Assembly (NCBI GenBank): GCA_963783305.1
Contig: CAWAMW010000007.1
Coordinates: forward strand, 224,001-288,000
Source: an uncultured Gemmatimonadales bacterium
GTDB lineage: Bacteria; Gemmatimonadota; Gemmatimonadetes; Longimicrobiales; RSA9
Reading direction: 5' to 3'
Length of the DNA: 64,000 nucleotides
A model generated the notes under the pieces. That model was not told the origin of the DNA, did not search any database, and saw only the letters and a program-made list of their open reading frames with translations. The position numbers and the translations under genes were made by a program. Shown here one piece after another: positions 28,443 to 49,021 of this stretch. Each line of letters opens with the position of its first letter. Within the stretch, counting starts at the first letter, position 1.

Positions 28443-28813
28443 GGGGCCGACCTGGATTCGACGTGTTTAGTAAAGTCGGCGTTGCGTGCCGAGGTGTCCG
28501 TTACCTCGTAAAACAGCGGAACAACTCACAAGTGCCAACGATAACATGGCGCTGGCTGCGTAAGTAACCTAGTTACTTAGCTCGTAGCCCGTTTGGTGTG
28601 GGAGCCCGCCCGAGGCGCCCCTCCAGACGACGACTGATTCGGGCTGGCTCCTCGGTGAGGCCACCGCACCAGGAGCGAGAATTCAGAGTGGCTGGCTCGT
28701 GAACGGCCGTCCGTCGTGCCAATGATCGGGTGAGAAAAAAAGAAGGCGGACTACGCACGTAGAAGCGCTGAGGGATCTATTCGCGGACGCGGGTTCGACT
28801 CCCGCCGGCTCCA
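28443..28813 (+). ncRNA. ssrA: tmRNA
   Basis: 5' GGGGCCGACCTGGATTCGAC; 3' GGGTTCGACTCCCGCCGGCTCCA; acceptor stem with G3:U70; tag ORF ANDNMALAA* at 28534-28563; terminal CCA not encoded. Confidence 0.97.
28793..28813 (+). repeat. att core copy 1 (tmRNA 3' end)
   Basis: GTTCGACTCCCGCCGGCTCCA, identical at 30719, 42977 and 45557. Confidence 0.95.
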
Positions 28814-28847
28814 CTTGAGGAAGTAGGGCAGGGGCAAAGTACAGAAG

Positions 28848-28887
28848 CGGCGGAGTGAGGCGAAAAATCTCACTCCGCCGTCTCTTT
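28848..28887 (+). terminator. Terminator hairpin after the tmRNA (cassette 1 copy)
   Basis: CGGCGGAGTGAG / CTCACTCCGCCG 12-bp stem, then TCTCTTT. Confidence 0.85.
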
Positions 28888-28960
28888 GTACAGGACACCC
28901 ACCCTCTGTCAGCGCCAGGAGCAGAGCACCCGAGGACAGGTGATCGCTGCGGAGTGGCGT

Positions 28961-29006
28961 GTTGTGATTACTCGTTATATCTTGTCAAAAAACGTGTAAC
29001 CACAAC
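28961..29006. promoter_or_regulatory. Inverted repeat in the abiE promoter (probable AbiEi operator)
   Basis: GTTGTGATTACTCGTT / AACGTGTAACCACAAC, 14 of 16 complementary, ending 10 nt before the ATG. Confidence 0.7.
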
Positions 29007-29016
29007 TCATCGACCG

Positions 29017-29619
29017 ATGCCTGAAACCAAGACAGAACGCCTACTTCAGCTGGTAAGGGAGCGGGGCCTCGTGCGCGCTCGCGAGGTCGCAGCGGCGGGC
29101 TATCCGACCGCACTGCTATACCGGCTACGGGACCGCGGAGAACTCGAACAGGTGGGGCCCGGACTGTTCCGCGATCCAGACGCGGATCTCACGGAGCGGC
29201 ACTCCTATGCGGAGGTGGCGAAGCTGGTGCCTGCCGGCGTGATCTGTCTGCTCTCCGCTCTCTCCTTTCACGAAATCGGCACGCAGAACCCGTGGCAGGT
29301 CTGGATCGCCCTCGAGAAAGGGAGCCAGCGGCCCCGTTCCCCAGGACTTCCGCTCAAGACCGTCTGGTTCTCGGGTGACGCCATGGAGGAGGGGGTGGAG
29401 CGCCACGAGGTCGAGGGCGTCGACGTGCGAGTGTTCTCTGCGGCGAAGACGGTAGCGGATCTCTTCAAGTTCAGGAACAAGGTGGGCGTGGATGTGGCAA
29501 TCGAAGCGCTTCGGGAGGGCCTGGAGCGCCGAATCTTTAGCCGCGACCAGATTCTACATTTCGCTCGGATCTGCCGGGTCGAGCGGGTCATGAAGCCGTA
29601 TCTGCAGGCCCTCTCGTGA
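29017..29619 (+). CDS. Type IV TA antitoxin, AbiEi family
   Basis: N-terminal HTH with GELEQVGPGLF, ICLLSALSFHEI, KTVADLFKFRNKVG. Confidence 0.9.
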   Translation: MPETKTERLLQLVRERGLVRAREVAAAGYPTALLYRLRDRGELEQVGPGLFRDPDADLTERHSYAEVAKLVPAGVICLLSALSFHEIGTQNPWQVWIALEKGSQRPRSPGLPLKTVWFSGDAMEEGVERHEVEGVDVRVFSAAKTVADLFKFRNKVGVDVAIEALREGLERRIFSRDQILHFARICRVERVMKPYLQALS

Positions 29620-30539
29620 GCGCGGGTGCAGGTCAACCGAAGGACCTCGCCGCGTCCGTGCGACAGCGTCTTCTCAACATCGCGCGTCAGGCCGGTGAGG
29701 ACTACAACGCGCTGCTGGTACGGTTCACCACGGAACGTCTGCTCTTCCGGATTTCCCGCTCGGCGCACGCGGACGACTTCGTCCTGAAGGGTGCCTGGCT
29801 CTTCCACGCGTGGGACATCGAGCGGAGGGCCACGCGCGACGTCGATTTCCTGGGCTTCGGTGAGTCGTCGCCAGCCGCGGTCGAGGCTCGTTTCCGCGAC
29901 ATCCTCGGGACCGAGGTCGAGCCGGACGGGGTGACGTTTGATCTCGATACTCTCCGGGTCGCTCCGACTCGCGACGGTGCCGCTTATCCAGGGGACCGAA
30001 TCCGAGTGGAGGCGCGGCTGGGGGCCGCGCGTATCACCGTCCAGGTAGACGTGGGCTACGGCGACGCAATCGTCGGGGAACCGGAGGTGGTGGATCTTCC
30101 GTCTCTTCTGGACTTCTCCGGTCCGCGCTTGCGTGCCTACACCGTCGAAGCGGCTGTCGCCGAGAAAGTCGAAGCGATCGTTCGGTTCGGAACTGTGACC
30201 ACCCGGTTCAAGGACTTCTTCGATCTCGCGGTGATTGCGAGCGAGCGGCAGCTCGATGGTGTGCTTCTTCGCGATCAGATCCGCGAGACCTTCGCCCGCA
30301 GAGGCACCCAGGTTCCCGATGGGGTCCCGGCCGGACTGGGCGACGCATTCGCCGAGGGCCCGGACTCGAAGAGGCAGTGGTTGGCGTTCCTGGAGCGCTC
30401 GAAAGGTCGAGGTGGAGTATCGGAGCGCTTTCCGCATGTAGTCGCGACCGTTCGCGGTATGGTGCTCCCAGTGCTCCACGCGGCCGCCCGCGACCGCGGC
30501 TTTGCCGAACGCTGGGTGCCGTCGATCGGCTGGCGCTGA
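29616..30539 (+). CDS. Type IV TA toxin, AbiEii/AbiGii nucleotidyltransferase
   Basis: FVLKGA, RATRDVD, AEKVEAI, TRFKDFFDL; coupled to the antitoxin gene. Confidence 0.9.
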   Translation: MSAGAGQPKDLAASVRQRLLNIARQAGEDYNALLVRFTTERLLFRISRSAHADDFVLKGAWLFHAWDIERRATRDVDFLGFGESSPAAVEARFRDILGTEVEPDGVTFDLDTLRVAPTRDGAAYPGDRIRVEARLGAARITVQVDVGYGDAIVGEPEVVDLPSLLDFSGPRLRAYTVEAAVAEKVEAIVRFGTVTTRFKDFFDLAVIASERQLDGVLLRDQIRETFARRGTQVPDGVPAGLGDAFAEGPDSKRQWLAFLERSKGRGGVSERFPHVVATVRGMVLPVLHAAARDRGFAERWVPSIGWR

Positions 30540-30718
30540 CCGGCGAGTACGAGTGGCCGATCGAGGGCTGGAGCCATCGTTCCCGCCGTGGGACTCACTC
30601 TGGAGCACCGTGGGGCGCGTTACATCGCACACCCCCATCGCACACCTTCTTCCGCAGACCACGCGTTCTGCCAGTAATGGCGGGGATATCTCCGTTTCCG
30701 ACTCCGGAGCACCTGCAT

Positions 30719-30810
30719 GTTCGACTCCCGCCGGCTCCACTTGAGGAAGTAGCGCAGGGGCAGGATACAGAAGCGGCGGAGTGAGACGACAAAATCTCAC
30801 TCCGCCGTTT
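30719..30810 (+). repeat. att core copy 2 plus near-identical copy of the spacer and terminator
   Basis: Core 30719-30739; downstream CTTGAGGAAGTAG..CAGGGGCA..TACAGAAGCGGCGGAGTGAG..CTCACTCCGCCG matches 28814-28880. Confidence 0.95.
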
Positions 30811-30825
30811 CTTCGTGCGTGGCTA

Positions 30826-31041
30826 TCAGCCCTCCTTCACTCCGCCCTTGGCTGCCTCGACAAACGGCCCTTCCTGCCCCGCCCGCTTCAGGAACTCGCG
30901 TTCCTCCGGGTCGCGAGGCGGGCGCGTCATGCCGCGCGTATCCGTGCGCGCCTGCGAGCGGCGGATTCGTTCCAGGCGGACCTGCCACTTCTCGCTGAGA
31001 TCTGGCTTGTTCATTTCGCCCATCATGACCTCCAGGCGCAT
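30826..31041 (-). CDS. Small hypothetical protein
   Basis: 71-aa charged ORF with AGGAAGG before the ATG; ends near the terminator hairpin. Confidence 0.4.
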   Translation of the reverse strand: MRLEVMMGEMNKPDLSEKWQVRLERIRRSQARTDTRGMTRPPRDPEEREFLKRAGQEGPFVEAAKGGVKEG

Positions 31042-31090
31042 GCCTTCCTGACGATAAGTACGAGATCGTACCCGAAACAGGACGGGCGGT

Positions 31091-31348
31091 TCAGGCGCGA
31101 CGGTTCAGTTCATCTATGAGATCCCTGAGCACCTGATCGGTAACCCGCTCCTGCGAGGAGGCGAGCTGCCTGAGCGCCTCGAGGGCGTCCATGGAATCCT
31201 CTCGTTCCAGCTCAGGTCCGAGCCACGACATGTCGAGGTCGTCCCCGAAAGCCGCGAGCATATCGATGGCCTGCTCGCCGTACGCGGTGTGCTTCCAGTG
31301 ATTGAATCCTACCAGTCGGTCCCGAAGCACTACTTCCTTCTTGACCAC
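31091..31348 (-). pseudogene. Probable N-terminally truncated gene (possible nucleotidyltransferase-like C-terminus)
   Basis: Protein-like [20 protein letters not shown]...; its 5' end runs into the extended tail of iorB. Confidence 0.35.
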
Positions 31349-33549
31349 TCTGAACTCCGCGACCAGGTCAGCTCGTGCGCGGCGATGGGCAGCGAACGAA
31401 TGCGACGGCCGGTGGCGGCGAAGATGGCACTGGTGAGCGCCGGGAGGACCGGCGGCAGCATCGGCTCACCCAGGCCGGTCGGGTCGTGGTCGGTGATGAC
31501 GAAGTCCACGTCGATCTCCGGGGGCGTCTGCGTCAGGCGGATGAGCGGGTAGTCGTGGAAGTTGCTCTGCTCGGCGCGGCCGTCGGCAATTGTGATGGCC
31601 ATGCCCAGGGCTGAGCCCAGCCCCTCGATCACACCGCCCTGCACGTTGTTGAGGGCGTTCAGCGGGTTGATGATCTGCCGGCCCACGTCGCCCACCGCCC
31701 AGACCCTGTCGATGTTGAGCTCGCCCTCGCGGGTGACACTGGCCTGGACCACCTCGGCGAAATAGCCGCGGTGGCTGTAATGGAACGCGGTGCCCATGCC
31801 GGTCCCGGCGGGCAGGTCGGTCCGGCCCCATCCCGAGCGGTCGCGGACGCGGCGCAGCACGCCGGCCGCGCGTGAGGCGTCGAGACCAGGCTCCTCGGCG
31901 GTGACCGCGAGGAGGTCGAGGCGGAACTGGAGCGGATCGCGACCCGCCGCGTGGGCCAGTTCGTCAATGAATGACTGGATGGCGAACGCGATGCCGTTGC
32001 TGCCCGGCGCGCGCATCCATCCCGTCGGGATCCCGGACGGCATCATGGACGCGGCGAGCATGAAGTTGGGGACGAAACCTGCAGGGAACTCGGAGCTCCG
32101 GATGCTCGCGGCGGTGGCGAAGCGTTCTCCGTCGCCCAACGAGACGAAGTGGTCACGCCAGGCGGTGATCCGGCCCTGTGCGTCGACGCCGCCGCTCAGG
32201 TAGTGCCAGCCGGCGGGGCGGTACATGTCGTGCCGCACGTCATCCTCGCGGGACCAGACCAGCTTGACCGGGTGGCCGACCTCGCGGGAGATGCGGGCGG
32301 CCTCCACCATGTAGTCGTTGTCGAGTCGGCGCCCGAATCCGCCGCCGCACCGCAGAAGGTGGATCGTCACGTCGCTTTCGGGGATGCCGAGCGTATCGGC
32401 TACCCGGGTCCGGCCCCAGTCCGGCGTCTGCGTCGGCGCCCAGATCTCAATGGTGCCGTCGCCTTTCCAGTGCGCCGTGCAGTTCTGCGGCTCCAGCGGC
32501 GCGTGGCTGAGGAAGGGATAGTGGTAGGCTCTCTCGATGGTGGTGGCCGCGCGAGACATGGCGACGTCGAAGTCGCCGTTGCTCCGGAGCGTCTGCTGCG
32601 GTGACCCTGCGGCCAGCTCGTCGGCCTGGCGCTGGAACCCAGCGCTGCTTTGCGACGCTGTTTCGCCCTCGTCCCACTCCACCCGCAGCACGTCGCGGCG
32701 GGCCGAGTGGGCATCCCACCACGTATCGGCCACGACGGCGACGCCGCCCAGCAGGCCCCTCAGGTCGTCGCCGCCCTCGACGACGAACGCGTGCCGGACG
32801 CCCGGCGCGCGGCGAACCGCTTCCAGGTTTGCGCTCGCCACGCGGCCGCCGTAAACCGGGCACTTCTCGAACACGGCGTACAGCATCCCCCGAACGGTGT
32901 GATCGATGCCGAACAGTGGCTGCCCCGTCACGATGGCGTGATTGTCCACGCCCGGGATCGGCGTGCCGATGATGCGGAAATCTTCCGGGTTTTTGAGCGG
33001 GACCGACTCGAGGGCCGGCGGCGAGAGGGTGGCAGCGCGGTCGAGGAGGTCGACGTAGGCGAGTCGCCTGCCGCTGGACCCGTGTACCACCACACCCGGC
33101 TCCGTGCTCACCTCATCCGCGGGGACGCCCCACTGCTCGGCCGCGGCCCGCATCAGCATCCGGCGGGCCGCGGCGCCCACTCGCCGCATGGGCATCCAGT
33201 GCGTTGGCGTGGCCGTGCTGCCGCCCGCGAACTGCCGCTCGTAGCGGTCGTCATGGGACGCCTGGGTCACGCGTACGCTCGACCACGGCACGTCCAGCTC
33301 GTCGGCAATGATCATGGGCAGCATTGTCTTCACGCCCTGCCCGATCTCCGGGTTCTGCGCCACAATCGTGACGCGTCCGTCCGGAGTCATGCGGATGAAC
33401 GCGTTGGGCTCGAAGTCCGCGAGCCCCGTAGCCGCCGCGTCGCCGAAGTCGAGGTAGGTGGCCAGCATCAGCCCACCGCCGGCGAGAGCGGACACGCGCA
33501 GGAAGCTGCGGCGGTCCATGGCGCCGGGGCTGGGGGCTGGAGTGCTCAT
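31330..33549 (-). CDS. iorB: Molybdopterin oxidoreductase large subunit (IorB / xanthine dehydrogenase family), Tat-exported
   Basis: MDRRSFL twin-Arg, [28 protein letters not shown]. Confidence 0.88.
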
Positions 33550-34082
33550 GAGGCGTCCTCCCGTGGCTCATGGCGGCGACCCCCGCCGTCCGGTCCACCC
33601 ACGCCGGTGGACCCGTTCGAGGTGGCCGCGGCGGACGCGGCGGCCCGGTGGATGGCTTCGCGGATCCGAAGGTAGGTGCCGCAGCGGCAGATGTTGCCGT
33701 TCATGGCGGCGTCGATGTCGTCGTCCGTGGGGCGCGGATTGCGCTCGAGCAGCGCCGCGGCCGACATGAGCTGGCCCGCCTGGCAATACCCGCACTGTGG
33801 CACGTCGAGCTCCTGCCAGGCCTCCTGCAGGGCGTGGGTGCCGTCCGGTGAGAGCCCCTCGACGGTCCGGACCCGGCCCCCGGCCACGGCGGAGACGGGC
33901 GTGATGCACGAGCGCGTGGCCGAGCCATTGAGGTGGACGGTGCACGCTCCGCACTGGGCCATGCCACAGCCGAACTTGGTGCCCTTCAGGTCCAGCACGT
34001 CGCGCAGGACCCAGAGCAGCGGCATGTCGCCGCGGACGTCGACGCTCTGCGCCTCGCCGTTGACTTCAAAAGAGAGCTTCAT
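33546..34082 (-). CDS. iorA: (2Fe-2S)-binding small subunit
   Basis: [26 protein letters not shown]. Confidence 0.9.
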
Positions 34083-34451
34083 GAGGGGGGCTCCGCTTGG
34101 GAGGTGGGACAAAAGTTAAACCGACCGGGAATGCATGGCCAGGCTACGGCGCGACGGGTCTGGCGGGTAGACCGGTGGGGAGGTGATCAGGGGTGTGGGG
34201 CCGGTCCCGGCCGCGGCGTATGGGGGGGGTAGCCAGCGATGACTCAAACAAGAAACGGACGCGCCTCCCGACGACCCTTCGCGGCAAGTGTCCCTCCGCT
34301 GTTTGTCGTGTGGCCGCCGTCCTACATTCCATCTGCGCCGTCTGCGAGCGGCCTCGGGGGCCCGCGGTCTACGGGCGGACCGCCTCTTCCGGTTGACGGG
34401 TGGCGATTATCCCGCGACCATCCGTCCGACGTGAACCGGACTACAACGGGA

Positions 34452-34814
34452 ATGCGACGACTCCTCGCGCTGACACTGCTGATCCTGACAAGCGCCGCCT
34501 CCATGGAGGAGGTGGTGGGCGTCGTGCGGGACGGCGAGGTGCATCACGAGAGTACTGTGGCCGCAGCGACACACGCCCAGGCGTCTGCGGGTGACCATGG
34601 CCATGAAGATACCGCTCACTCGGGTGAGCACCGGCACGGCGAGGGCCATGATCACGGCACTACGGGTGACCACTGCACGCACACCCACGGTCCCGCGGTC
34701 CTGACCACGACCCCGCCTCCTCTCCTCGTCGAGACGGACGAGGAACTTGTTACTGAGAGCGCGCTCCCGCGCGCGATCGTCTCCGACGGGTTCGCCCACC
34801 CTCCCCGGGCGTAA
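34452..34814 (+). CDS. His-rich leader protein (CzcI/DUF2946-like) ending HPPRA
   Basis: 120 aa; signal-like N-terminus, 14 His, HCTHTH, C-terminal HPPRA*; first ORF before czcC. Confidence 0.7.
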   Translation: MRRLLALTLLILTSAASMEEVVGVVRDGEVHHESTVAAATHAQASAGDHGHEDTAHSGEHRHGEGHDHGTTGDHCTHTHGPAVLTTTPPPLLVETDEELVTESALPRAIVSDGFAHPPRA

Positions 34815-34963
34815 TCCCCTGACGCGGCGCCGTCGCTGACGCGACGCCTCGCCGCTCGATCGAAAGCACCCACAACACAGCCGATCGATCGGATCCGTGC
34901 CCTGCACGGGCGCCTCCGCGCGTCCGTCCCGGTGGCACGGTTCCACGGAGACGAGAGACAGAG

Positions 34964-36265
34964 ATGAACCCACGACGAGCGAGTGCGCTCGCGGCCCTCC
35001 TGGCCGTGTGCGCGGCGGCGCCGTCGCTGGCGGCTCAGATGCCGCCGGCCGACGGGGCCACACCCGCCGACACGCTGCGCCTGACGCTTTCCGACGCCCA
35101 GCGACGCGCCCTCACAATGAATCCGGCCTTCCTGGCCGATGCTACGGCAGGGGAGATCGCGCGCGGGGAGCTGCGCCACGCCCGGGTCTATTCCTACAAC
35201 CCCCAAGCGGAGTTCGACGCCCCAGGGTCCGCATCGGCCGGCGAGCTGGGGGCGTATGAAGCGCGCCTGGCCCAGGAGGTGGAGTGGGCCGGGCAGCGAG
35301 GCCTCCGGATCGACGCGGCGGAGATCGGCGTCGCCCGGGCCGAGCGCAGTGTGGCGGATGCGGCCCGACGGACGCTGGCCGACGTGAGCGTGGCGTTCTA
35401 TACGGCGCTGGCGGCCGAGGAGCGGCTGCGGGTGGCGACCGAGGTGGCCGGGCTGAACGAGCGGCTGATGGAGGCGGTGCGCATCCAGCTCCGGGAGGGC
35501 GAGATCAGCATCATGGAGGCGAACCTGGCCGCGATCGAGGTCGGGCGTGCCCGTGCGCGAGTGCTGTCTGCCCGGCGCACGGCCACATCCGCGCAGCTGG
35601 CCCTGGGGCGGCTGGTGGGGGCACCGCCGGAGGTGGCCGTCCGGGTGGAGACGGAGGTGGCGCCGGCGCCGGCACCGAAAACCCTCGACCCCGACGGGCT
35701 TCTCGCGGCGGCGCTTGAGCAGCGTCCGGACCTGGCCGCGGCGGCCACGGCTGTCCTGCAGTCGGAGACGCTGACCCGGCTCGCCCGCCGGGAGGCGATT
35801 CCGAACCTCGAGATCGTGGCCCTCGCGGAGCGGGACGGGATCGGGAGCGAGCCGCGGGTGGGGCTCGGCGTGGGACTCCCGCTGCCGTTCTGGGATCGGA
35901 ACCAGGGGGTGGTCGCCCGCCGCAGGGCCGAAACCGATCGGGCGGCGTACGTCCTGGAGGCGACGCGGCTCGAGGTCCGGACGGAGGTGATCGATGCCTA
36001 CCGCTCCTACGTGGCCGCGGCGGAGGAGGTCGCGGTCTTCGAGGCGGACGTGCTGGAGCCGGCCCAGCGGACCCAGGAGATGCTGGAAACGGCGTACGAG
36101 GCGGGGAAGACGGACCTGAGCGCGCTGGTCCTTCTGCGAAACCAGCTGCTGGATGCGGAGCTGTCGTACTGGGAGGCCTGGCTGGCGCAGCGGGAGGCGC
36201 TGGTGCGACTGCGGGCCGCTACGGGCGAGCTGACGATCGAGGACCTGAACGGAAGTGACCGATAG
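34964..36265 (+). CDS. czcC: Outer-membrane efflux protein (TolC/CzcC)
   Basis: Signal peptide, helical repeats, LPLPFWDRNQG, AYEAGK. Confidence 0.85.
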   Translation: MNPRRASALAALLAVCAAAPSLAAQMPPADGATPADTLRLTLSDAQRRALTMNPAFLADATAGEIARGELRHARVYSYNPQAEFDAPGSASAGELGAYEARLAQEVEWAGQRGLRIDAAEIGVARAERSVADAARRTLADVSVAFYTALAAEERLRVATEVAGLNERLMEAVRIQLREGEISIMEANLAAIEVGRARARVLSARRTATSAQLALGRLVGAPPEVAVRVETEVAPAPAPKTLDPDGLLAAALEQRPDLAAAATAVLQSETLTRLARREAIPNLEIVALAERDGIGSEPRVGLGVGLPLPFWDRNQGVVARRRAETDRAAYVLEATRLEVRTEVIDAYRSYVAAAEEVAVFEADVLEPAQRTQEMLETAYEAGKTDLSALVLLRNQLLDAELSYWEAWLAQREALVRLRAATGELTIEDLNGSDR

Positions 36266-37438
36266 ATGAGAACCGCGACATACAACCTCGGATGGATTGC
36301 GGCGGCGCTGGCTGTGCTGGCGGCGGGATGCGGTGACGGATCGAACGGCGCCGGAGGCGCTGGCGATGAACACGAGGAGCATGCCGAGAATGGCGCACCG
36401 GGCATGGAGCTGGTGGAACTCGACTCTACCGCCCTCGCCATGGCCGGGATCGAGATCGGCGTGACGGACACGGTGCACTCCACGGCCCTGCCCGCGACCG
36501 GGACCATCACCTATGACCAGAACCGGGTCAGCCACATCGGTCCCCGAACGGAGGGGCGGATCCTGAGCCTGCGTACCGACCTCGGCGCTCGCGTCCGGTC
36601 CGGACAGGTGCTGGCGGTGCTCGAGAGCCCGGACGTGGGTGCTACCCGGGCGGACCTGCACGAGGCCGAGTCCATGGTCGAGATCGCGCGGGAGAACTAC
36701 GAGCGGGAGCGTCGTCTCGAGGAGCAGGGGATCTCGAGCCGCCGGGAGCTGCTGGAGGCGGAGCGGGAGCTCCGCCAGGCGGAGGCGGCGCTGCTCCGGG
36801 CCGGAGAGCGGCTCCAGGCGCTGGGCGCGGGCCATGGCGACGGGAGCCAGTTCACCGTCACGGCCCCGTTCGACGGCGTGGTGGTCGAGAAGCACGCCAC
36901 CCAGGGCGAGGTCGTGGGGCCGTCGGACCAGCTGTTCACCGTGGCGGACCTGGGCCGGTTGTGGATCGAGCTGGACATCTACGAGCGGGACCTGCGTCGT
37001 GTGGCGCTGGGCCAGCCGGTGCGCGTCACCACGACAGCCTACCCGGACCGGTCCTTCGACGGCGAGATCGTCTACATCGGCGACATCCTGGACCCCGGAA
37101 GCCGAACCGTGCGGGCGCGGGTCGAGGTGGAGAACCTCGCGGGCGCGCTCCGGCCTGGAATGTTCGCCCGGGCCGCGATCCGGGTTTCGGGCGAGAGCAG
37201 CGTCGTCGTAGTGCCCCGGGGCGCCGTGCAGACGATCGAGGGGCGGCAGGTCGTGTGGGTCGAGGGCGAGCTCCCGAGCCGGTTCCGGGCCCAGCCCGTG
37301 GAAACGGGCCAGACGCTTCAGGGCGACAGCATCGAGATCCTGAGCGGGCTGGATCCCAACGAGCGGATCGTTACGGAGGGCGCCTTCACGCTGAAGGCCC
37401 AGCTCTCCAAAGGCGAGTTCGGCGGACACGGGCACTGA
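36266..37438 (+). CDS. czcB: RND periplasmic adaptor lipoprotein
   Basis: LAAGC lipobox, APFDGVV, LRPGMF, His-bearing N- and C-terminal segments. Confidence 0.88.
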   Translation: MRTATYNLGWIAAALAVLAAGCGDGSNGAGGAGDEHEEHAENGAPGMELVELDSTALAMAGIEIGVTDTVHSTALPATGTITYDQNRVSHIGPRTEGRILSLRTDLGARVRSGQVLAVLESPDVGATRADLHEAESMVEIARENYERERRLEEQGISSRRELLEAERELRQAEAALLRAGERLQALGAGHGDGSQFTVTAPFDGVVVEKHATQGEVVGPSDQLFTVADLGRLWIELDIYERDLRRVALGQPVRVTTTAYPDRSFDGEIVYIGDILDPGSRTVRARVEVENLAGALRPGMFARAAIRVSGESSVVVVPRGAVQTIEGRQVVWVEGELPSRFRAQPVETGQTLQGDSIEILSGLDPNERIVTEGAFTLKAQLSKGEFGGHGH

Positions 37439-37448
37439 GGGGGCGACG

Positions 37449-40400
37449 ATGATCGACAAGCTGATCGATTTCGCCCTCCGCCAGCGGCTGCTGGTGCTCG
37501 TGGGCACGGTGGCGCTCTTCGGGGCGGGCGCGTGGGCGTACACGCGCCTGCCGGTGGACGCCTACCCGGACATCTCGCCCGCGCTGGTACAGGTGTTCAC
37601 GGAGACGGAAGGCCTCGCGCCGGAGGAGGTGGAGCAGCTCGTCACCTACCCGGTGGAGGTGGCGATGAACGGGCTGCCCGGGCTGGAGGAGATCCGGTCC
37701 GTGAGCAACTTCGGGCTCTCCGTCGTCAACATCTATTTCGAGGAGGGGACGGACATCTATTTCGCGCGGCAGCTCGTGAACGAGCGGCTGCAGCAGGCGC
37801 GGGAGGGGATCCCGGCGGGGCTCGGCGAGCCGGTCATGGGGCCGATCTCCAGCGGCCTGGGCCAGATCCTCTTCTACTACCTCGACGACGAGACGGGGGA
37901 GTACACGCTGGAGGAGCTGCGGACGATGGAGGACTGGATCGTCAAGCGGAACCTCCAGACCATCCCGGGCGTGACCGAGGTCCTCTCCATCGGCGGGCAC
38001 GTGAAGCAGTACCAGGTGGTCGTGGATCCGAACCGGCTCCGACAGTACGGACTGTCGCTCCACCAGGTGCTGGAGGCGGTGGAGCAGAACAACCTCAACG
38101 TCGGCGCGAGCTACCTCGAGGTAGCCAGCGAGGAGTACCTGGTCCGCTCGATCGGGCTGGCCCAGAACCTTGCCGACATCGAGGACATCACCATCGAGAC
38201 CCGGGAGGGCACACCCGTCCGCGTGGGTGAGATCGCCGACGTGCGGATCGGGCCGGAGATCCGGCGCGGGCTGGTGACCCGGAACGGCGAGGGCGAGATC
38301 GTCGTCGGGTTCGTGCTGAAGCTGCTGGGCACCAATACCTCGACCGTGATCGACCGCGTCCAGGAGCGGCTGGACGTGATCCGGGACGCGCTCCCCGAGG
38401 GCGTCCGTCTGGTGCCGTACTACGAGCAGGCGAGCCTGGTGGGCCGGGCCACGACCACGGTGACGAGTGCGCTGTGGCAGGGGCTCATCCTGGTGGTGAT
38501 CGTGCTGGCGCTCTTCCTGGGCAACCTGCGGTCTTCCGTGATCGTGGCGCTGAGCCTGCCCTTCTCCATCCTGCTGGCGTTCCTGCTCATGAAGCAGTTC
38601 GGTGTGAGCGCGAACCTCATGTCGCTGGGCGGGCTGGCCATCGGGATCGGGATGATGGTGGACGCGGCCATCGTCGTCGTGGAGAATGTGTTCCGATGGC
38701 TGAAGGAGGATCCGGACCCGGATGAGCCGAAGCTCCACCTCGTGGCCCGGGCGGCGCGCGAGGTCGGCCGACCCGTGTTCTTCGCCATTGCCATCGTCAT
38801 CATCGTCTTCCTGCCGCTGTTCACGCTTCAGGGCGTGGAGGGGACGATGTTCCGGCCGCTGGCCTACACCATCTCCATGGCCATGGTCGGCTCGCTCCTC
38901 TTCTCGCTTACCGTGGCGCCCGTGCTCGCGTCGTTCCTCCTGAAGCGGGAGCCGAGGGAGGCGAACGCGGCGGAGGACGAAGACGACGAGGTCGCCATCG
39001 TACGCTGGCTCCAGCGAAGGTACCAGCCGCTGCTGGCGTGGGCGTTGGACCACAAGAAGGCCGTCATCGCGGGAACCGCCGGGTTGATCGTGATCGGCGC
39101 CGGCGTCTTCCCGTTCCTCGGCACCGAGTTCATCCCGCAGCTCAACGAGGGGACCATGCTGGTCCGAGCGACGTTGGCGCCGTCGATCTCACTGAGCGAG
39201 GCGACGGCGACGGTAGAACGGATAGAGCGGGAGTTCCTGCGCTACCCGGAGGTGACGCAGGTGGTGAGCCGCATCGGGCGCGGGGAAGTGGGCGCGCATG
39301 CGGACCCGGTGAACAACGCCGAGATGTTCGTGGACCTGAAGCCCCGGGGCGAGTGGGAGACCGCCGGTAGCCAGGACGAGCTGGTGGAGGCCATGAGCGA
39401 GCGGCTGGAAGCGTTCCCGGGCGTCCAGCTCAACTTCACGCAGCCCATCGCGGCCGCGGTGGACGAGCTGCTCACGGGCACGAAGGCCGAGCTCGCCATC
39501 AAGCTCTTCGGCGACGACCTGGACGTCCTGCTCGACAAGGCGAACGAGATTGCGGCCGTTGTGGGCGAGGTCGAGGGCGCGTCCGAGGTCCAGGTGGACC
39601 AGGTGACGGGTCAGCCCCAGCTCAAGATCACGCTGGATCGCGGCGCGCTTTCCCGGTACGGGATCCCGGTCGAGCACATCCAGCATGAGATCCGGGCGGC
39701 CATCGGCGGCGCCGTGGCCGGGCAGGTCTTCGAGGGCGAGCGACGGTGGGCGATCTACGTCCGCTACGCCCCCGAGTTCCGGGCGACTGCGGAGGACGTG
39801 GCTTCGCTGCTGATCGACGCGCCGGACGGGTCCATGGTCCCGGTGGGGCAGCTGGCGGACATCCAGACGCTGATCGGGCCGCGGCAGATCTCGCGGGAGC
39901 AGAACCAGCGCTACATCACGATCCAGCTGAACGTGCGGGGCCGCGACATCGGCGGGTTCGTGGAGGAGGCGGGCGGGGCGATCCAGCAGGCGGTCGAGTT
40001 GCCGGCCGGCTACCTGACGAGCTTCGGCGGCCAGTTCGAGCTGGCCCAGGCGGCGAACAAGCGGCTGATGATCGTCATCCCGATTACGCTGATCCTGATC
40101 TTCGGGATGCTCTTCGCGAGCTTCGGCTCCCTGAAGGAGGCGCTGCTCATCCTGCTGAACATCCCACTGGCGCTGGTGGGCGGGCTTGTGGCGCTGCTGG
40201 TCACCGGGCAGAGCCTGTCGGTGCCGTCGAGCGTCGGGTTCATCGCGCTGTTCGGGATCGCCGTCGAGAACGGCCTGGTCCTGGTCACCTATTTCAACCA
40301 GCTCCACCGCGAGGAGGGCCTCTCGATCCGGGAGGCGGTGGAGCGGGGCTCCATGCTCCGGCTCCGACCGGTGCTCATGACCGCTCTGACCACGACGCTG

Positions 40401-40559
40401 GGGCTCGTCCCCCTGCTGCTGGCCAGCGGGGCCGGCTCCGAGGTCCAGCGGCCGCTGGCTATCGCCGTGGTCGGCGGGCTGGTCACGTCCACCGCCCTGA
40501 CTCTCCTGGTGCTGCCGGTGCTGTACGGCTGGCTGCACCGCGAGCCCGTGAGATACTGA
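37449..40559 (+). CDS. czcA: Heavy-metal efflux RND transporter (CzcA/CusA family)
   Basis: DAYPDIS, GLAPEEVE, GMMVDAAIVVVEN, RLRPVLMTA, GSEVQRPLA. Confidence 0.93.
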   Translation: MIDKLIDFALRQRLLVLVGTVALFGAGAWAYTRLPVDAYPDISPALVQVFTETEGLAPEEVEQLVTYPVEVAMNGLPGLEEIRSVSNFGLSVVNIYFEEGTDIYFARQLVNERLQQAREGIPAGLGEPVMGPISSGLGQILFYYLDDETGEYTLEELRTMEDWIVKRNLQTIPGVTEVLSIGGHVKQYQVVVDPNRLRQYGLSLHQVLEAVEQNNLNVGASYLEVASEEYLVRSIGLAQNLADIEDITIETREGTPVRVGEIADVRIGPEIRRGLVTRNGEGEIVVGFVLKLLGTNTSTVIDRVQERLDVIRDALPEGVRLVPYYEQASLVGRATTTVTSALWQGLILVVIVLALFLGNLRSSVIVALSLPFSILLAFLLMKQFGVSANLMSLGGLAIGIGMMVDAAIVVVENVFRWLKEDPDPDEPKLHLVARAAREVGRPVFFAIAIVIIVFLPLFTLQGVEGTMFRPLAYTISMAMVGSLLFSLTVAPVLASFLLKREPREANAAEDEDDEVAIVRWLQRRYQPLLAWALDHKKAVIAGTAGLIVIGAGVFPFLGTEFIPQLNEGTMLVRATLAPSISLSEATATVERIEREFLRYPEVTQVVSRIGRGEVGAHADPVNNAEMFVDLKPRGEWETAGSQDELVEAMSERLEAFPGVQLNFTQPIAAAVDELLTGTKAELAIKLFGDDLDVLLDKANEIAAVVGEVEGASEVQVDQVTGQPQLKITLDRGALSRYGIPVEHIQHEIRAAIGGAVAGQVFEGERRWAIYVRYAPEFRATAEDVASLLIDAPDGSMVPVGQLADIQTLIGPRQISREQNQRYITIQLNVRGRDIGGFVEEAGGAIQQAVELPAGYLTSFGGQFELAQAANKRLMIVIPITLILIFGMLFASFGSLKEALLILLNIPLALVGGLVALLVTGQSLSVPSSVGFIALFGIAVENGLVLVTYFNQLHREEGLSIREAVERGSMLRLRPVLMTALTTTLGLVPLLLASGAGSEVQRPLAIAVVGGLVTSTALTLLVLPVLYGWLHREPVRY

Positions 40560-40574
40560 TCGAGGAGGCAGACC

Positions 40575-40916
40575 ATGAAGATGATCATCGCGTTCATTCC
40601 GCCGTACAGGCTGGATCGGGTCACGAGGGCGCTGGAGCACGTGGTCGGGTTCCCCGGCATGACCGTCACCGAAGGCCGCGGCTTCGGCCGCGAGAAGCTG
40701 GCCGTGGGGGCCGAGGACCGGCGCGCGTCGCTGGAGGACTATACCGACGCGGCCCGGATCGAGGTCGTGGCCCACGACGGGCAGGTGGAGGGGATCGTCA
40801 CGGCGATTACCGAAGCCGCCCACACCGGCCAGCGCGGGGACGGCAAGATCTTCGTGCTGCCGGTCGAGCGGGCGGTGCGGATCAAGACGGGGGAAGAGGG
40901 GGAGGCGGCGGTCTGA
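40575..40916 (+). CDS. P-II family regulator
   Basis: MKMIIAFI, GMTVTEGRGFG, TGQRGDGKIFV. Confidence 0.9.
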   Translation: MKMIIAFIPPYRLDRVTRALEHVVGFPGMTVTEGRGFGREKLAVGAEDRRASLEDYTDAARIEVVAHDGQVEGIVTAITEAAHTGQRGDGKIFVLPVERAVRIKTGEEGEAAV

Positions 40917-41363
40917 TGTCGGCGGAAGGCTCGTGGAACCGGATCCGCTACACGCTCTGGTCGCCCATCTACGATCGCGTCGCCTCCTTCAGCCGATCGC
41001 GGCGGAGGTCCCTGGAGCTGCTGGCGGGTGGGAAACGCCCAGTCGCTTGACCTCCCGGACGCCAGCTTCGACGCCGTCGTCCTGCACCTCATCGTCGCGG
41101 TGGCCGATGATGGAGCGGCGGTGGTGCGGGAGGCGGCACGAGTCCTGAAGCATGGGGGGCGGGTCGTCATCTTCGACAAGTTCGCCCGGCGCGAACCCGG
41201 TCCCATACGGAGGATGCTGAACATCATCACCCACGCCCTGTTCTCGGACATCAACCGGAAGCTGGCGCCGCTGCTGGACGGGAGCGGCCTCGAGATCGTG
41301 CACCGCGAGACAGCGGCGTTCCGCGGACACTACGACATCATCCTGCTGCGGAAGGGAGCCTGA
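40916..41363 (+). pseudogene. Class I SAM methyltransferase with internal deletion and frameshift
   Basis: N-part WNRIRYTLWSPIYD...SLELL joins out of frame near 41027 to GNAQSLDLPDASFDAVVLHLI...RVLKHGG; the GxGxG motif I is absent. Confidence 0.75.
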
Positions 41364-41365
41364 GC

Positions 41366-42262
41366 ATGGGAGCCGGACACACACACGGTCCCCCGGCAGG
41401 AAGTCAGAACCGGAAGCGCCTGGCGATCACTTTGGGGCTGGTGCTCCTTTACATGGGGGCGGAGGTCGTCGGCGGAATCCTGACCAATTCCCTCGCCCTG
41501 CTGGCCGATGCCGGGCACATGCTCAGCGACGCTGCCGCGCTCGGCCTCGCCCTCTTCGCGATCTGGTTCGCCCGACGCCCCGCCACGGCGAGCCACACGT
41601 TCGGCTACTACCGCACGGAAATCCTGGCCGCGCTGGCGAACGGGGCCACGCTCGTGGCGATCTCCATCTACATCTTCGTGGAGGCATTTCAGCGCTTCCG
41701 GGAGCCGCCGGACGTCGAGGGTGGGCTGATGATGGTGATCGCGGCGGGTGGGCTCGTGATCAACCTCGCGGGGCTCCTCATTCTCCGCGGAGGTCGCGAG
41801 GAAAGCCTGAACGTCCGCGGCGCGTGGCTGCACGTTCTGACGGACATGCTCGGAAGCGTTCAGGCCCTGGTGGCGGGCGCTCTGATCTGGTGGTTCGGCT
41901 GGAACTGGGCGGACCCGGTGGCGTCGGTACTCATCGGGCTCCTCGTCATCTATTCCTCATGGGAGCTGCTGAAGGAGTCGGTCGGGGTGCTGATGCAGAA
42001 GGCGCCCGCCCGGATCGACGTGGACGAGCTACGTGACGCCATCATGGAGATGGACGGTGTCGTCGGCATCTGCGACATGCATGTATGGACGGTGACGAGT
42101 GGCCTCGAATCCATGTCCGCCCACGTCACCGTCGAGGAGGGCCGGGTCGGACGGGACATGCTGAGCCGGGTGCGAGAACTCGTTCACGACCGCTTCGGGA
42201 TCGACCACGTCACGATCCAGCTCGAGCCCGAGGGGTTCGAGGAACCGGAGGTAGCGTTCTGA
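41366..42262 (+). CDS. czcD: Cation diffusion facilitator
   Basis: MGAGHTH, LLADAGHMLSD, HVLTD, DMHVW, HVTIQ. Confidence 0.92.
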   Translation: MGAGHTHGPPAGSQNRKRLAITLGLVLLYMGAEVVGGILTNSLALLADAGHMLSDAAALGLALFAIWFARRPATASHTFGYYRTEILAALANGATLVAISIYIFVEAFQRFREPPDVEGGLMMVIAAGGLVINLAGLLILRGGREESLNVRGAWLHVLTDMLGSVQALVAGALIWWFGWNWADPVASVLIGLLVIYSSWELLKESVGVLMQKAPARIDVDELRDAIMEMDGVVGICDMHVWTVTSGLESMSAHVTVEEGRVGRDMLSRVRELVHDRFGIDHVTIQLEPEGFEEPEVAF

Positions 42263-42289
42263 GGTCGGTCAGTCGCGGAGGAGCCAGGC

Positions 42290-42410
42290 CCGCGCGTGGC
42301 TTCGACAACTTCGTCCCCCATTCCTCCCACTTGTTCTCGCCCACGATGGCGATCCGGTCCATCTCGTCCTGGTGCGTCGCGTCGAACTTCACGTCCTTCC
42401 ACAGTCCTCC
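42290..42410 (-). pseudogene. Fragment of a SpoIIAA-like (STAS/SEC14) gene
   Basis: GGLWKDVKFDATHQDEMDRIAIVGENKWEEWGTKLSKP, lacking the family's N- and C-termini. Confidence 0.6.
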
Positions 42411-42527
42411 CGGATCCCGATCTCGATCGGCCCCATGATCACGCGACCGAACGCATCGTGATCGACGTGGAAGGTCGTCAACTTCGAGCCGATCATCGTG
42501 TTCAGGAGTAGGGTTCCCACCTCGCGG

Positions 42528-42799
42528 TCAGATCTCGAGCTGCATCCCGAGCTCCACCACCTGGTTTGACGGGATCCGGAAGTAGGTGGTGGCGCCAGTG
42601 GCGTTGCGACTCATGACGGCGAAGAGCTTGTCGCGCCAGAGCGCCATCCCGGGTCGATACCAGATCGGCGTAGAGCGCCTCGCCGCCCGTCACCACCAGG
42701 AAGACGGAGCCCAGCACCAGGGGAGAGGATCATCAGGCGCTTGCCCGTAGGGCTGCTTTCCTGCTCGTACGCTTCCGGGAGCTGAAGGTCCTCGTCCAT
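42528..42799 (-). pseudogene. kup: Collapsed kup potassium transporter relic
   Basis: Three spliced pieces: N-terminal ..PTGKRLMILS, central [21 protein letters not shown]-terminal [41 protein letters not shown]. Confidence 0.85.
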
Positions 42800-42976
42800 G
42801 ACCGGCAAAGGTATTGGGTCCGACGCAGAGCCACCAGCACGACTATCTGAGGGCCTTGGGGCACTGCTTCGGGCGCTCTCCTCGCACACTCCACAGCACA
42901 CGGCTCTCACCGAAGAGGGACTTCTTAGCGCCATTACTGGGATATCCCCGGGTCACGTTTTACACGGTTCCCGCAT

Positions 42977-43068
42977 GTTCGACTCCCGCCGGCTCCATGC
43001 AGGAAGCAGTGAAGGCAGGACACAGAAACGGTGGAGTGACGCGGAAAAGCTCACTCCGCCGTTACTGT
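42977..43068 (+). repeat. att core copy 3 plus diverged copy of the spacer and terminator
   Basis: Core 42977-42997; AGGAAGCAG..GGCAGGACACAGAAACGGTGGAGTGA..TCACTCCGCCGTT. Confidence 0.92.
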
Positions 43069-43155
43069 GTGTGGCCGCCACGCCTTTGACGACGCCCCCC
43101 CTCCGCGCTACCCTTGCCTCGTCCCCACACCCGACCCCCACTACGCCAGACCACG

Positions 43156-45471
43156 ATGCGCCGACCTGTCGCCCTTGCCAGTCTCTTTGCCCTCCTCCCC
43201 CTCCTCGCCCCGGCGGCCGCGCGCGCCCAGGCCCCGTCGGCGGCCGAGATCGCCCGCTGGGAGGCTACGGCCGCGCGGGTCACCATCACCCGCGACGACT
43301 GGGGGATCGCCCACGTCCGCGGCGCCACCGACGCCGACGCGGTCTTCGGCATGGAGTACGCCCAGGCGGAGGACGATTACGCGCGCATCGAGGCCAACTA
43401 TGCCTTCGCCCTCGGGCGCACCGCCATGGCCACGGGCGAGGCCGGCATATGGCTGGACCTGCGCGCCCGCATGTACGCGGACCCGGACTCGCTGAAGGCG
43501 CTGTACGCGGAGAGCCCGGCGTCGCTGAGGGCGCTCATGGACGCGTTCGCCGACGGGCTCAACTACTGGCTGTACAGGCACCCGGACGCGGACCGCACCG
43601 CCATCCAGCGCTACGAGCCGTGGATGGCCCTCTCCTTCACCGAGGGGAGCATCGGCGGCGATATCGAGCGCATCGACCTGGACGCCCTGGAATCTTTCTA
43701 CGGCACCCAGCCGACCCGAGCCTCCCGGGCCACCGGGGGCTCCTCGGCGACCGGCGCCGGGCAGGCCGCCCGGGCCGGACAGGCCGGGCAGCCCGCGCAG
43801 GCCGGTGACGCGGCCCGGCCCCTCGTCGCATACATCGAGCGCCTGGCCAGCCGGGCGGCGGACGGGGAGCCGCGGGGGTCGAACGGGTTCGCCATCGCGC
43901 CGGAGAACACGCTGGACGGGCACGCGCTGCTCTTCATCAACCCCCACACCTCCTTCTACTTCCGCTCCGAGCTCCAGATGACGAGCGACGAGGGGCTGGA
44001 CGCGTACGGCGCGGTCACGTGGGGGCAGTTCTTCATCTACCAGGGCTTCAACCGCACGGCCGGGTGGATGCACACGTCCAGCGGCGTGGACAACATCGAC
44101 TGGTTCGACGAGACGGTGGTGGAGAAGGGGGGTCGCACGCTGGTCCGCTACGGCGGCCGGGAGGTCCCCATGGCGACGAAGCCGGTCACCATCCGCTACC
44201 GCGCGGACGACGGCTCCACGGCCGAGCGCACGTTCACCGTCTACTACACGCAGCACGGGCCCGTCGTGGCCCGCCACGGGGAGAAGTGGCGGACGGTGAG
44301 CCTCATGTGGAGCCCCGTGGACGCGCTGACGCAGAGCTACACGCGCACGAAGGCGAAGGACCTGGACGCGTACCTGGACATCATGAAGCTGCACACCAAC
44401 TCATCCAACAACACCGTCTACGCCGACGCGTCGGGGAACATCGCCTACCTCCACAGCAACTACATCCCCCGTCGCAGCACCGCGTTCGACTGGAACCAGC
44501 CCGTCCCGGGCGACGACCCGAAGACCGCCTACGACGGCGTCCTGACCATCGACGAGACCCCCAACGTCATCAACCCCGGCGTCGGCTGGGTCTACAACTC
44601 CAACAACTGGCCCTGGTCCGCCGCCGGCCCCGACAGCCCCGCCCGCGAGGAATTCCCCGAGTACGTGGAGCGCGGCCGCTACGAGACCGCCCGCGGCCTC
44701 CACGCCCTCCGCCTCCTCCCCGGGCACGACCCGTTCACCGCGGCCACGCTCACCGACCTGGCCTACGACAGCTACCTGCCCGCCTTCGCCCTCATGGTGC
44801 CGCCGCTGGTCCGGGCGTACGACGCGCTCCCCGCCGCCGACCCCATGCGCCAGAAGCTCGCCGGGCCCATCGCCCGGCTCCGCGGGTGGGACTACCGCTG
44901 GGGCGTGAACTCCGTCCCCACGTCGCTGGCCGTGTTCTGGGGGGAGGCCGTCATGGGCGATGGGTACCGCGCCGCCGACCGCCCCGAAGGCATGGCCCCC
45001 GAGCGGTGGGTGGGCGAGCGCGCCCCCGGCGCCCTGCTCGTCGAGACCTTCGCCTCCGCCGTGGACCGGCTGGCCGGCGACTTCGGCACCTGGGACGTCC
45101 CGTGGGGCCAGATCAACCGCTTCCAGCGCATCAGCCCCGACATCGGCCCCCACTTCGACGACGACGCCCACAGCATCCCCGTCCCCTTCACCTCCTCCCG
45201 GTGGGGCTCCCTGGCGTCGTTCGGCGCGCGGCCGTACCCGAACACCAGGCGGTGGTACGGCACCAGCGGCAACAGCTTCGTGGCCGTGGTGGAGTTCGGC
45301 GACAGCGTGCGGGCAAGGGCGCTGACCGCCGGCGGCGAGAGCGGGCACCCCGACTCGCCCCACTTCAACGACCAGGCGGCCCTCTACGCCATGGGGCACC
45401 TGAGGGAAGTGTACTTCTACCCCTCCCAGTTGAAGGCGCACACCGAGCGCGTGTACCACCCCGGCCGGTAG
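43156..45471 (+). CDS. Penicillin acylase family Ntn-hydrolase, secreted
   Basis: Signal peptide, RDDWGIAHV, YAQAED, G|SNG nucleophile, INPH, GESGHPDSPHFNDQA. Confidence 0.9.
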   Translation: MRRPVALASLFALLPLLAPAAARAQAPSAAEIARWEATAARVTITRDDWGIAHVRGATDADAVFGMEYAQAEDDYARIEANYAFALGRTAMATGEAGIWLDLRARMYADPDSLKALYAESPASLRALMDAFADGLNYWLYRHPDADRTAIQRYEPWMALSFTEGSIGGDIERIDLDALESFYGTQPTRASRATGGSSATGAGQAARAGQAGQPAQAGDAARPLVAYIERLASRAADGEPRGSNGFAIAPENTLDGHALLFINPHTSFYFRSELQMTSDEGLDAYGAVTWGQFFIYQGFNRTAGWMHTSSGVDNIDWFDETVVEKGGRTLVRYGGREVPMATKPVTIRYRADDGSTAERTFTVYYTQHGPVVARHGEKWRTVSLMWSPVDALTQSYTRTKAKDLDAYLDIMKLHTNSSNNTVYADASGNIAYLHSNYIPRRSTAFDWNQPVPGDDPKTAYDGVLTIDETPNVINPGVGWVYNSNNWPWSAAGPDSPAREEFPEYVERGRYETARGLHALRLLPGHDPFTAATLTDLAYDSYLPAFALMVPPLVRAYDALPAADPMRQKLAGPIARLRGWDYRWGVNSVPTSLAVFWGEAVMGDGYRAADRPEGMAPERWVGERAPGALLVETFASAVDRLAGDFGTWDVPWGQINRFQRISPDIGPHFDDDAHSIPVPFTSSRWGSLASFGARPYPNTRRWYGTSGNSFVAVVEFGDSVRARALTAGGESGHPDSPHFNDQAALYAMGHLREVYFYPSQLKAHTERVYHPGR

Positions 45472-45556
45472 GCGCCCCCTGGCCGCGCGCGGACCGCGCT
45501 GACGACATGGGGGCGGGACGCAGGTTCTCCGGTCGCAGGCCCTGTGGCACGCGCAT

Positions 45557-45577
45557 GTTCGACTCCCGCCGGCTCCA
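45557..45577 (+). repeat. att core copy 4
   Basis: GTTCGACTCCCGCCGGCTCCA preceded by GCAT. Confidence 0.92.
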
Positions 45578-45582
45578 TGGAA

Positions 45583-45621
45583 GCGCCCGGTGATCTTCGG
45601 ATCACCGGGCGCCTTGTTGTT
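45583..45621 (+). terminator. Terminator with a UUCG tetraloop (candidate native ssrA terminator)
   Basis: GCGCCCGGTGATC-TTCG-GATCACCGGGCGC perfect 13-bp stem, then CTTGTTGTT. Confidence 0.85.
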
Positions 45622-45723
45622 CGCGGCGTTCGACGCCGTCTCACCCGCGCACCCGTCTCGCTGCGCGATCCGGACGCGGGCTGAGTTGCGGTCCACATAG
45701 GCGGGGCGCCGATCACGACCTGC

Positions 45724-49010: not shown

Positions 49011-49021
49011 CCCGGCACCCC

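Follow-up and report, generated by a model that had tools for sequence, protein, structure and literature searches.

A tandem array of cargo units at the ssrA 3' end of an uncultured Gemmatimonadales bacterium, with no integrase found in any unit

The 64,000-nucleotide stretch analysed here (the window: positions 224,001 to 288,000 of contig CAWAMW010000007.1, assembly GCA_963783305.1, from an uncultured Gemmatimonadales bacterium) carries three units of unrelated cargo stacked in tandem on the 3' end of ssrA, the transfer-messenger RNA (tmRNA) gene, and raises the question of how units in which no integrase is found came to accumulate behind this gene. In our numbering, the source genome (17 contigs) is G000 and the window is G000:C7:224001-288000; other G numbers denote relatives and L numbers loci. 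The answer to which we assign about even confidence is that the units are non-autonomous cassettes, inserted at the T-loop of ssrA by a helper-supplied tyrosine integrase and then decaying in place.

The target gene, ssrA (28443..28814, plus strand; tag ANDNMALAA), contains inside its 3' end the first of four exact copies of a 21-mer core (28793..28813), attL-like in position, in which the T-loop TTCGACT is flanked by GCGGG and CCCGC. The remaining copies, also on the plus strand, lie at 30719..30739 (copy 2, an attP-like junction between units 1 and 2), 42977..42997 (copy 3) and 45557..45577 (copy 4), giving core spacings of 1926 (unit 1), 12258 (unit 2) and 2580 bp (unit 3). In 100 shuffles no copy was expected even at three mismatches, and the rest of the 4.35-Mb genome holds none within one mismatch; a three-mismatch match at C7:311055 may be chance. 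Directly 5' of the core stands GCGG at copy 1 and GCAT at copies 2-4, so that ssrA reads GCGGG-TTCGACT-CCCGC and the displaced copies GCATG-TTCGACT-CCCGC. The repeats, their spacings and this flanking difference had been reported in a first-pass annotation made from the sequence alone, and the exact scan and the shuffles bear them out. Because the identity between ssrA and the displaced copies begins at the G before the T-loop, we infer a crossover point within TTCGACT; the T-loop is one known crossover subsite in tRNA genes (PMC4383910).

It is very improbable that the repeats are an assembly artefact. Although the genome is in 17 contigs and no listed contig piece from the sequencing runs spans the whole stretch, the four copies differ from one another immediately outside the core, and the same architecture recurs in independent assemblies. 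Moreover, one contig of run X1 crosses abiEii, arm, core and hairpin (30109-30785, 24 differences), and one of run X4 crosses core and hairpin into unit 1 (28793-28943); X4 contigs, which differ by about 4-8%, extend over most of the AbiE unit and bridge core and hairpin into it.

The units share more than the core. A homologous arm of about 95 bp, overlooked in the first-pass annotation, lies 5' of copies 2 and 3 and forms the right end of unit 1 (30620..30718, plus) and of unit 2 (42878..42976, plus). This arm, termed A, consists of tandem TCGCACAC repeats (two GCACAC repeats 12-13 bp apart), GTTCT, AATGGCGGGGATATC (AAT..GGGATATC across the two arms) and GCAT; it also holds GATATC and ends in CGCATG in units 1 and 2. 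Junctions 1 and 2 share 92% identity across 98 bp. Folding of the plus strand of these arms is no better than that of shuffles (z -0.3 for unit 1, -0.65 for unit 2), and the arm is best described as an unstructured, putative arm-type att sequence. In unit 3 the right arm (45525..45556, plus) is reduced to its last ~35 bp, the core-proximal part without the GCACAC repeats (model positions 70-108 only, E 0.006). On the other side of the core, copies 1-3 are followed by a homologous spacer and a GGAGTGA/TCACTCC hairpin, forming the left ends of units 1 (28839..28891, a probable replacement terminator), 2 (30769..30812) and 3 (43020..43068), all on the plus strand, with fold z of -4.6, -7.1 and -5.4; copy 4 is followed by a different, UUCG hairpin with a palindrome (45583..45692, plus; z -4.7). 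Folding thus agrees with the first-pass description of both hairpin types. The left-end hairpins tolerate G-U changes as RNA terminators do, and a double change is seen in 3 of 17 pairs, a weak covariation.

These ends recur with other cargo. Within G000 the arm and hairpin profiles match this locus only, barring one match at E 0.85, but a scan of a metagenome collection for GCATG plus core returned six loci, three of them on contig JABAOG010000165.1 (L114), where the three junctions enclose units of 3451 and 2118 bp with the window's arm and hairpin ends and with cargo that, read from translations, is unrelated to the window's. One other match, L116, sits in a coding region and was rejected as chance. 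Arm A accompanies nine of ten aligned GCATG copies (the exception is copy 4 of the window, with the core-proximal part only), and all five closed units ending in GCATG, three in the window and two in L114, begin with the GGAGTGA hairpin and carry unrelated cargo. The arms are otherwise diverged (70% mean column identity), yet their motifs are conserved. The arm model matched 11 of 73 family genomes, strongly only G000, G002, G032 and G089, and BLAST of the junctions against 401 genomes of the phylum found little past the core. The sequences support one element family with standardised ends; the first-pass proposal of three such members stands in the shared ends with other cargo in L114, and is weakened by the truncated arm of unit 3 and the fused, decayed state of unit 2.

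More broadly, a tandem direct repeat (at least 7/8 identity, spacing 10-12, lying 62-112 nt upstream of the core) precedes 27 of 46 displaced cores against 2.2 expected, and none of the controls (0/10 ssrA copies, 0/7 of the mini-units described below). Since comparable tandem repeats in the same bacterial family separate tRNA terminators from tyrosine integrase genes, we read the arms as integrase arm-type sites: the right arm looks like an integrase attP arm, its arm-type sites being putative.

Where the array ends is a separate question. The model in the first-pass annotation would make copy 4 the displaced native end of ssrA, a view that the comparison with relatives does not sustain. Over 130-160 bp, what follows copy 4 shares 85-89% identity with sequence behind internal cores in G095 and behind ssrA in G095 and G079. 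The conserved hldE-ridA flank lies 160 kb downstream of ssrA. The UUCG hairpin recurs after ssrA and after internal cores of relatives, where it forms the left end of cassettes. The variable region therefore probably runs on past copy 4, and the flank behind this copy more likely begins a cassette of a different type than represents the native end, although it may still originate from the native terminator. The palindrome at window 45635-45692 consists of inverted and direct copies resembling the ssrA T-arm region, and a second, core-less copy lies 19.5 kb downstream (G000:C7:289141-289224).

The first-pass annotation had proposed that related genomes be compared for cassette number and content, and both indeed vary, the extremes being a site that is nearly empty and one with about 18 ssrA-end copies. 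The core is present in 62 of 73 family genomes, many with several copies; this tally includes four unpublished genomes, and several of its one-mismatch matches are chance. G029 is close to an empty site. The hldE-ridA pair follows ssrA by 0.5-10 kb in G029, G014, G086, G031, G016 and G019, and lies 103-205 kb away in G068, G066, G000, G032, G067, G017 and G079. G095 has 19 core matches, one probably chance, and units of differing cargo there bear a standard arm of a second type, with GGGTAACA repeats; its long array (L048-L053), in which about 18 ssrA-end copies are spread across several contigs, is a better test case than the window. A third arm type, with CCCACAC repeats, is found in G030, G082 and G017. 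The pattern of ssrA units reaches beyond the family: in G316, from another family, a 1049-bp ssrA unit (L261:5780-6849) contains only a two-gene toxin-antitoxin (TA)-like pair and has a right arm with tandem GGTCACAC repeats. Separately, nine genomes contain 14 mini-units, 142-212 bp long and enclosed by two copies of the ssrA end (L004, L005, L006, L013, L014, L048-L051, L059, L062, L263), which comprise a terminator, a degenerate core, a palindrome of CGCTTCGCTC type and often an inverted degenerate core/T-arm copy, and are without arm repeats; they are possibly a separate small non-coding repeat element.

The units of the window contain no integrase that we could detect, as the first-pass annotation had stated. 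In tblastn of nine recombinases against the window the best E was 0.08, none of 24 intergenic open reading frame (ORF) pieces of the window matched an integrase in PHROGs, and Pfam named no transposase or relaxase among 19 window ORFs, no search aimed at relaxases having been made. Two hidden Markov models (HMMs), A1 from eight family integrases (including unpublished G020 and G024 sequences) and a second from 16 mixed recombinases, were run in six frames and gave no integrase signal in the window units and 50 ssrA-associated loci, and the positive controls, including a 31-residue remnant, were detected. Among closed units the count is 0/28, three from the window and 25 from 13 other sources; a fourth G079 interval (7684 bp) was left out of this set, and the three G079 units counted have identical end sequence and an IS-rich look (IS, insertion sequence), so that they may be duplications and not independent cassettes. 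Ten arm-model loci scanned held no integrase, and 59 further stretches, mostly around family core matches, yielded as their only signal a C-terminal IntI-like fragment of 66 codons in G066, 18.5 kb downstream of ssrA and away from any core. The same fragment accounts for the one phrog_1 match among seven contiguous ssrA-to-hldE intervals (1.18 Mb in total; six without a match), and in the whole 160-kb interval of G000, from ssrA to the conserved flank, no integrase or remnant was found.

The tRNA islands of G000, by contrast, keep integrase remnants. A tRNA-Arg island of ~29 kb (G000:C17:111611-140867) has an integrase N-terminal remnant after its displaced fragment, and a broken integrase lies at tRNA-Ile (G000 C2:389-1042). 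A displaced tRNA-Gly fragment is found at G000 C14:8451, and 19 tRNA genes are clustered within 2.5 kb at G000:C2:112817-115285.

The cargo named in the first-pass annotation, among it an AbiE pair and an acylase, was recovered by Pfam and PADLOC. Unit 1 encodes a type IV TA system, the antitoxin abiEi (29017..29619, plus; PF13338; PADLOC AbiEi E 6e-77) and the nucleotidyltransferase toxin abiEii (29616..30539, plus; PF08843; PADLOC AbiEii E 1e-95). Unit 2 begins with a 71-aa ORF and the C-terminal 85-aa remnant of a ~215-aa protein (30826..31348, minus) that is full length in G017 and G025; this region recurs in ssrA units of G017, G032, G067 and G095. An Atlas search with the 71-aa ORF gave no usable match, and a nucleotidyltransferase/TA-like identity of the 85-aa ORF is a weak lead. 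There follow the large subunit of a molybdopterin oxidoreductase with its 2Fe-2S small subunit (31330..34112, minus), a metal-efflux module (34452..42262, plus) with a His-rich ORF, a czcC/B/A-type resistance-nodulation-division (RND) system, PII, a split methyltransferase and a cation diffusion facilitator (CDF) transporter, and SpoIIAA-like and Kup-like gene fragments (42210..42717, minus). Unit 3 carries a penicillin-amidase family acylase (43156..45471, plus; PF01804 E 7e-114). Beyond the array, a glycoside-hydrolase-like gene at window 48803-51380 appears to be split over overlapping frames (48803-50254 and 49980-51380), by a frameshift or an assembly error.

The units have not remained intact. 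Within unit 2, the 3' half of a GGAGTGA-type hairpin (34294..34318, plus), which nhmmer did not detect, probably marks the place where a junction was lost: in one contig of run X2, position 34294 follows directly on an intact hairpin, the 16 inserted letters completing the stem exactly, at a weak joint with a short left side and a depth of 6. The half hairpin and this joint make it probable that two cassettes have fused in unit 2. The unit also contains the gene that has lost its 5' part here but is complete in G017 and G025, the split methyltransferase and the other fragments. Its first 611 bp, an integrase-less left end, are 92.8% identical to DNA directly after ssrA in G032, a member of another genus. 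Decay signs are likewise present in G002 and G032, where a TA-like pair, Gp49-like plus HTH_37, is followed by a core-less arm A remnant (L009:9417-10220 and L061:16510-17330); this is a decayed cassette of the arm-A family. The GC content at third codon positions (GC3) is 0.76 for abiE and 0.97 for the acylase, against 0.89 for host dusB. An order of arrival with the acylase oldest and AbiE newest, as proposed in the first-pass annotation, is plausible and fits both GC3 and the decay of the distal arm; for tycheposons such outward displacement of older elements by newcomers is on record (bioRxiv 10.1101/2020.12.28.424599), and the GC3 values and decay gradient seen in this array are consistent with it.

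Which enzyme could have moved the units? PF00589 and phrog_1 searches of G000 found XerC, XerD, a solitary IntI-like protein and a tRNA-Ile integrase pseudogene. The IntI-like protein (G000:C15:291441-292532, L003) has Phage_int_SAM_4 and PF00589 domains, has similar counterparts in several relatives and scores 201.5 with TIGR02249 against a cut-off of 265. XerC, XerD and the IntI-like protein are the only intact tyrosine recombinases found in this genome, and the units might accordingly be shuffled by one of them, or by RecA acting on the repeated ~90-bp junctions with their 92% identity over 98 bp. We consider such host-driven shuffling improbable, since the arms have no attC-like fold, G095 with the longest array has no IntI-like match, and RecA alone leaves the conserved motifs in otherwise diverged arms unexplained. 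The core also seems unlike the dif consensus. No large serine recombinase was found in G000, with no PF07508 match and one sub-threshold PF00239 match on another contig, and the full recombinase match lists of 13 relatives place none at a core. The family-wide integrase lists leave 206 matches outside each, and no statement of absence rests on them. A tRNA-associated tyrosine integrase family of Gemmatimonadota (L086, L082, L164-L243) has weak PF00589 scores (29-37 bits), a tRNA gene of one of many isoacceptors within 2.5 kb at 60 of its best 80 loci, and, with the same query, no match in viral contigs.

As a plausible mechanism, each unit would arrive as a circle whose attP comprises right arm A, GCATG, the last 21 ssrA bases and the terminator hairpin. 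A lambda-type tyrosine integrase would cross over in the T-loop TTCGACT, and insertion would restore ssrA with a new terminator while displacing earlier units away from the gene. The integrase would come from a rare or transient helper, either in trans or as a tandem neighbour since departed, and resident cassettes would decay by deletion, leaving unit 1 intact, unit 2 fused and unit 3 without most of its arm. The enzyme class, the circles, the helper and the order of arrival are steps that we infer.

The strongest competitor, which we regard as quite possible though somewhat doubtful, is the classical genesis of a cis-mobilizable element (CIME), in which autonomous islands lose their own integrase beside attL by a deletion starting behind the terminator, which would leave the units today as fossils, or as mobile only in cis together with a neighbour. 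Integrase loss is the route described for CIMEs (PMC5704250); family integrases lie directly behind the tRNA terminator and left arm, the family-A left ends are without arm repeats, and decay is clear in units 2 and 3 and in G002 and G032. However, neither the 28 closed units nor the 59 stretches contain a remnant, bar the one IntI fragment, whereas the tRNA islands of G000 keep theirs, and no integrase lies behind some left ends of other arm families even though these retain their tandem repeats. The remnant-free units thus favour helper-served cassettes over integrase loss.

Several observations weigh against helper-served cassettes. The family-A left ends have no tandem arm repeat, so that attL may be defective, and the three displaced copies of the window fall below the strict repeat threshold (scores 6, 6 and 5). 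Deletion is evidently at work in this locus, as the truncated genes and arm remnants attest, and integrases could have been lost to it as well. A helper was sought without success: the ssrA core was near none of 13 family serine recombinase loci, none of the best 80 of 167 loci of the tRNA integrase family and none of 15 other long integrases. Plasmid and phage collections gave no match, and none of 18 IMG/VR matches to the core, most of them in tRNA or tmRNA-like surroundings and one in a phage whose integrase is unrelated, was a Gemmatimonadota-type attP. The first-pass annotation had suggested looking for a tyrosine recombinase beside the same spacer and hairpin elsewhere in the genome, and for circular junctions. 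The former search led back to this locus and no integrase, and the listed joints in contigs of four runs contain no circle junction, core-to-core skip or empty site. The visible decay, the repeat-less left ends and the missing helper and circles keep later loss of integrases alive as an explanation.

Compared with known systems, the array is a compact form of the CIME-like accretion known at ssrA, distinguished by its standard arms, its very small units and the fact that no cognate integrase was found in the relatives examined. CIMEs lack integration and transfer genes and retain attL and attR (PMC5704250), and they stack in tandem at one target site; retention of both ends is apparent at the sequence level in units 1 and 2 (core, arm and hairpin), the arm of unit 3 being truncated. 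Unlike the present units, which are as small as one or two genes, CIMEs are described as decayed integrative and conjugative (ICEs) or mobilizable (IMEs) elements beside an active one, whereas no integrase-bearing parent or neighbour was found here in the genome or the relatives examined. The ssrA islands of Dehalococcoides are likewise tandem units bounded by ~20-bp repeats of the ssrA 3' end, in which the displaced copies differ from ssrA in a fixed way; 15 without an integration module were proposed to be cis-mobilisable, and 16 carry a DsiB serine-recombinase module (PMC3146451). In our case G000 lacks PF07508, which is not found at ssrA elsewhere in the family either, and the arms resemble the tyrosine-integrase type. 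Tyrosine-integrase islands at tRNA and tmRNA genes also restore the target and displace a 3' fragment in the same orientation, with a crossover in the T-loop region as proposed here, but carry their own integrase, such as intY in Pseudomonas tmRNA islands (PMC12595487), and none was found in the window units. Additive flexible islands of Alteromonas share variable cassettes with czc and TA cargo at tRNA/tmRNA hotspots, some with partial-gene repeats, although the available part of that source describes no conserved arm sequences or mechanism (PMC4898812).

The first-pass annotation also spoke of integron-like behaviour, and the analogy holds in outcome: like integrons and attC-site clusters that have no integron integrase (CALINs; PMC11389934), the locus is a recombinase-less cargo stack with standard ends and probable addition at one end. 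It differs in having no attC-type fold, no adjacent IntI, an ssrA anchor, units up to 12 kb and genes on both strands, and we rejected identity with integrons because the arms lack an attC-like fold, IntI is not adjacent and the IntI-like protein on C15 falls below the TIGR02249 cut-off. A bolder reading, tentative and in our estimate rather unlikely, is a Gemmatimonadota analogue of the integron with double-stranded att sites, in which circulating cassettes that never had an integrase, each made of standard arm and terminator ends around one to ten genes of cargo (TA pairs, efflux, hydrolases), are inserted into ssrA by a rare helper integrase. Our literature search, of partial coverage, found no description of ssrA arrays in Gemmatimonadota. 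As Islander rejects candidates without an integrase or below 2 kb (PMC4383910), these arrays would be invisible to it.

If the units are merely decayed islands, the locus is a well-preserved case of known accretion. With an arm and a core defined, one can search for the missing helper and test excision. If the integron analogy is true, accretion would feed a variable region of 100-200 kb downstream of ssrA that is hidden from integrase-based island finders. And if integrase-less cassettes with standard ends are normal at ssrA, much of the accessory genome, including defence, metal resistance and hydrolases, would move unseen by tools that require an integrase.

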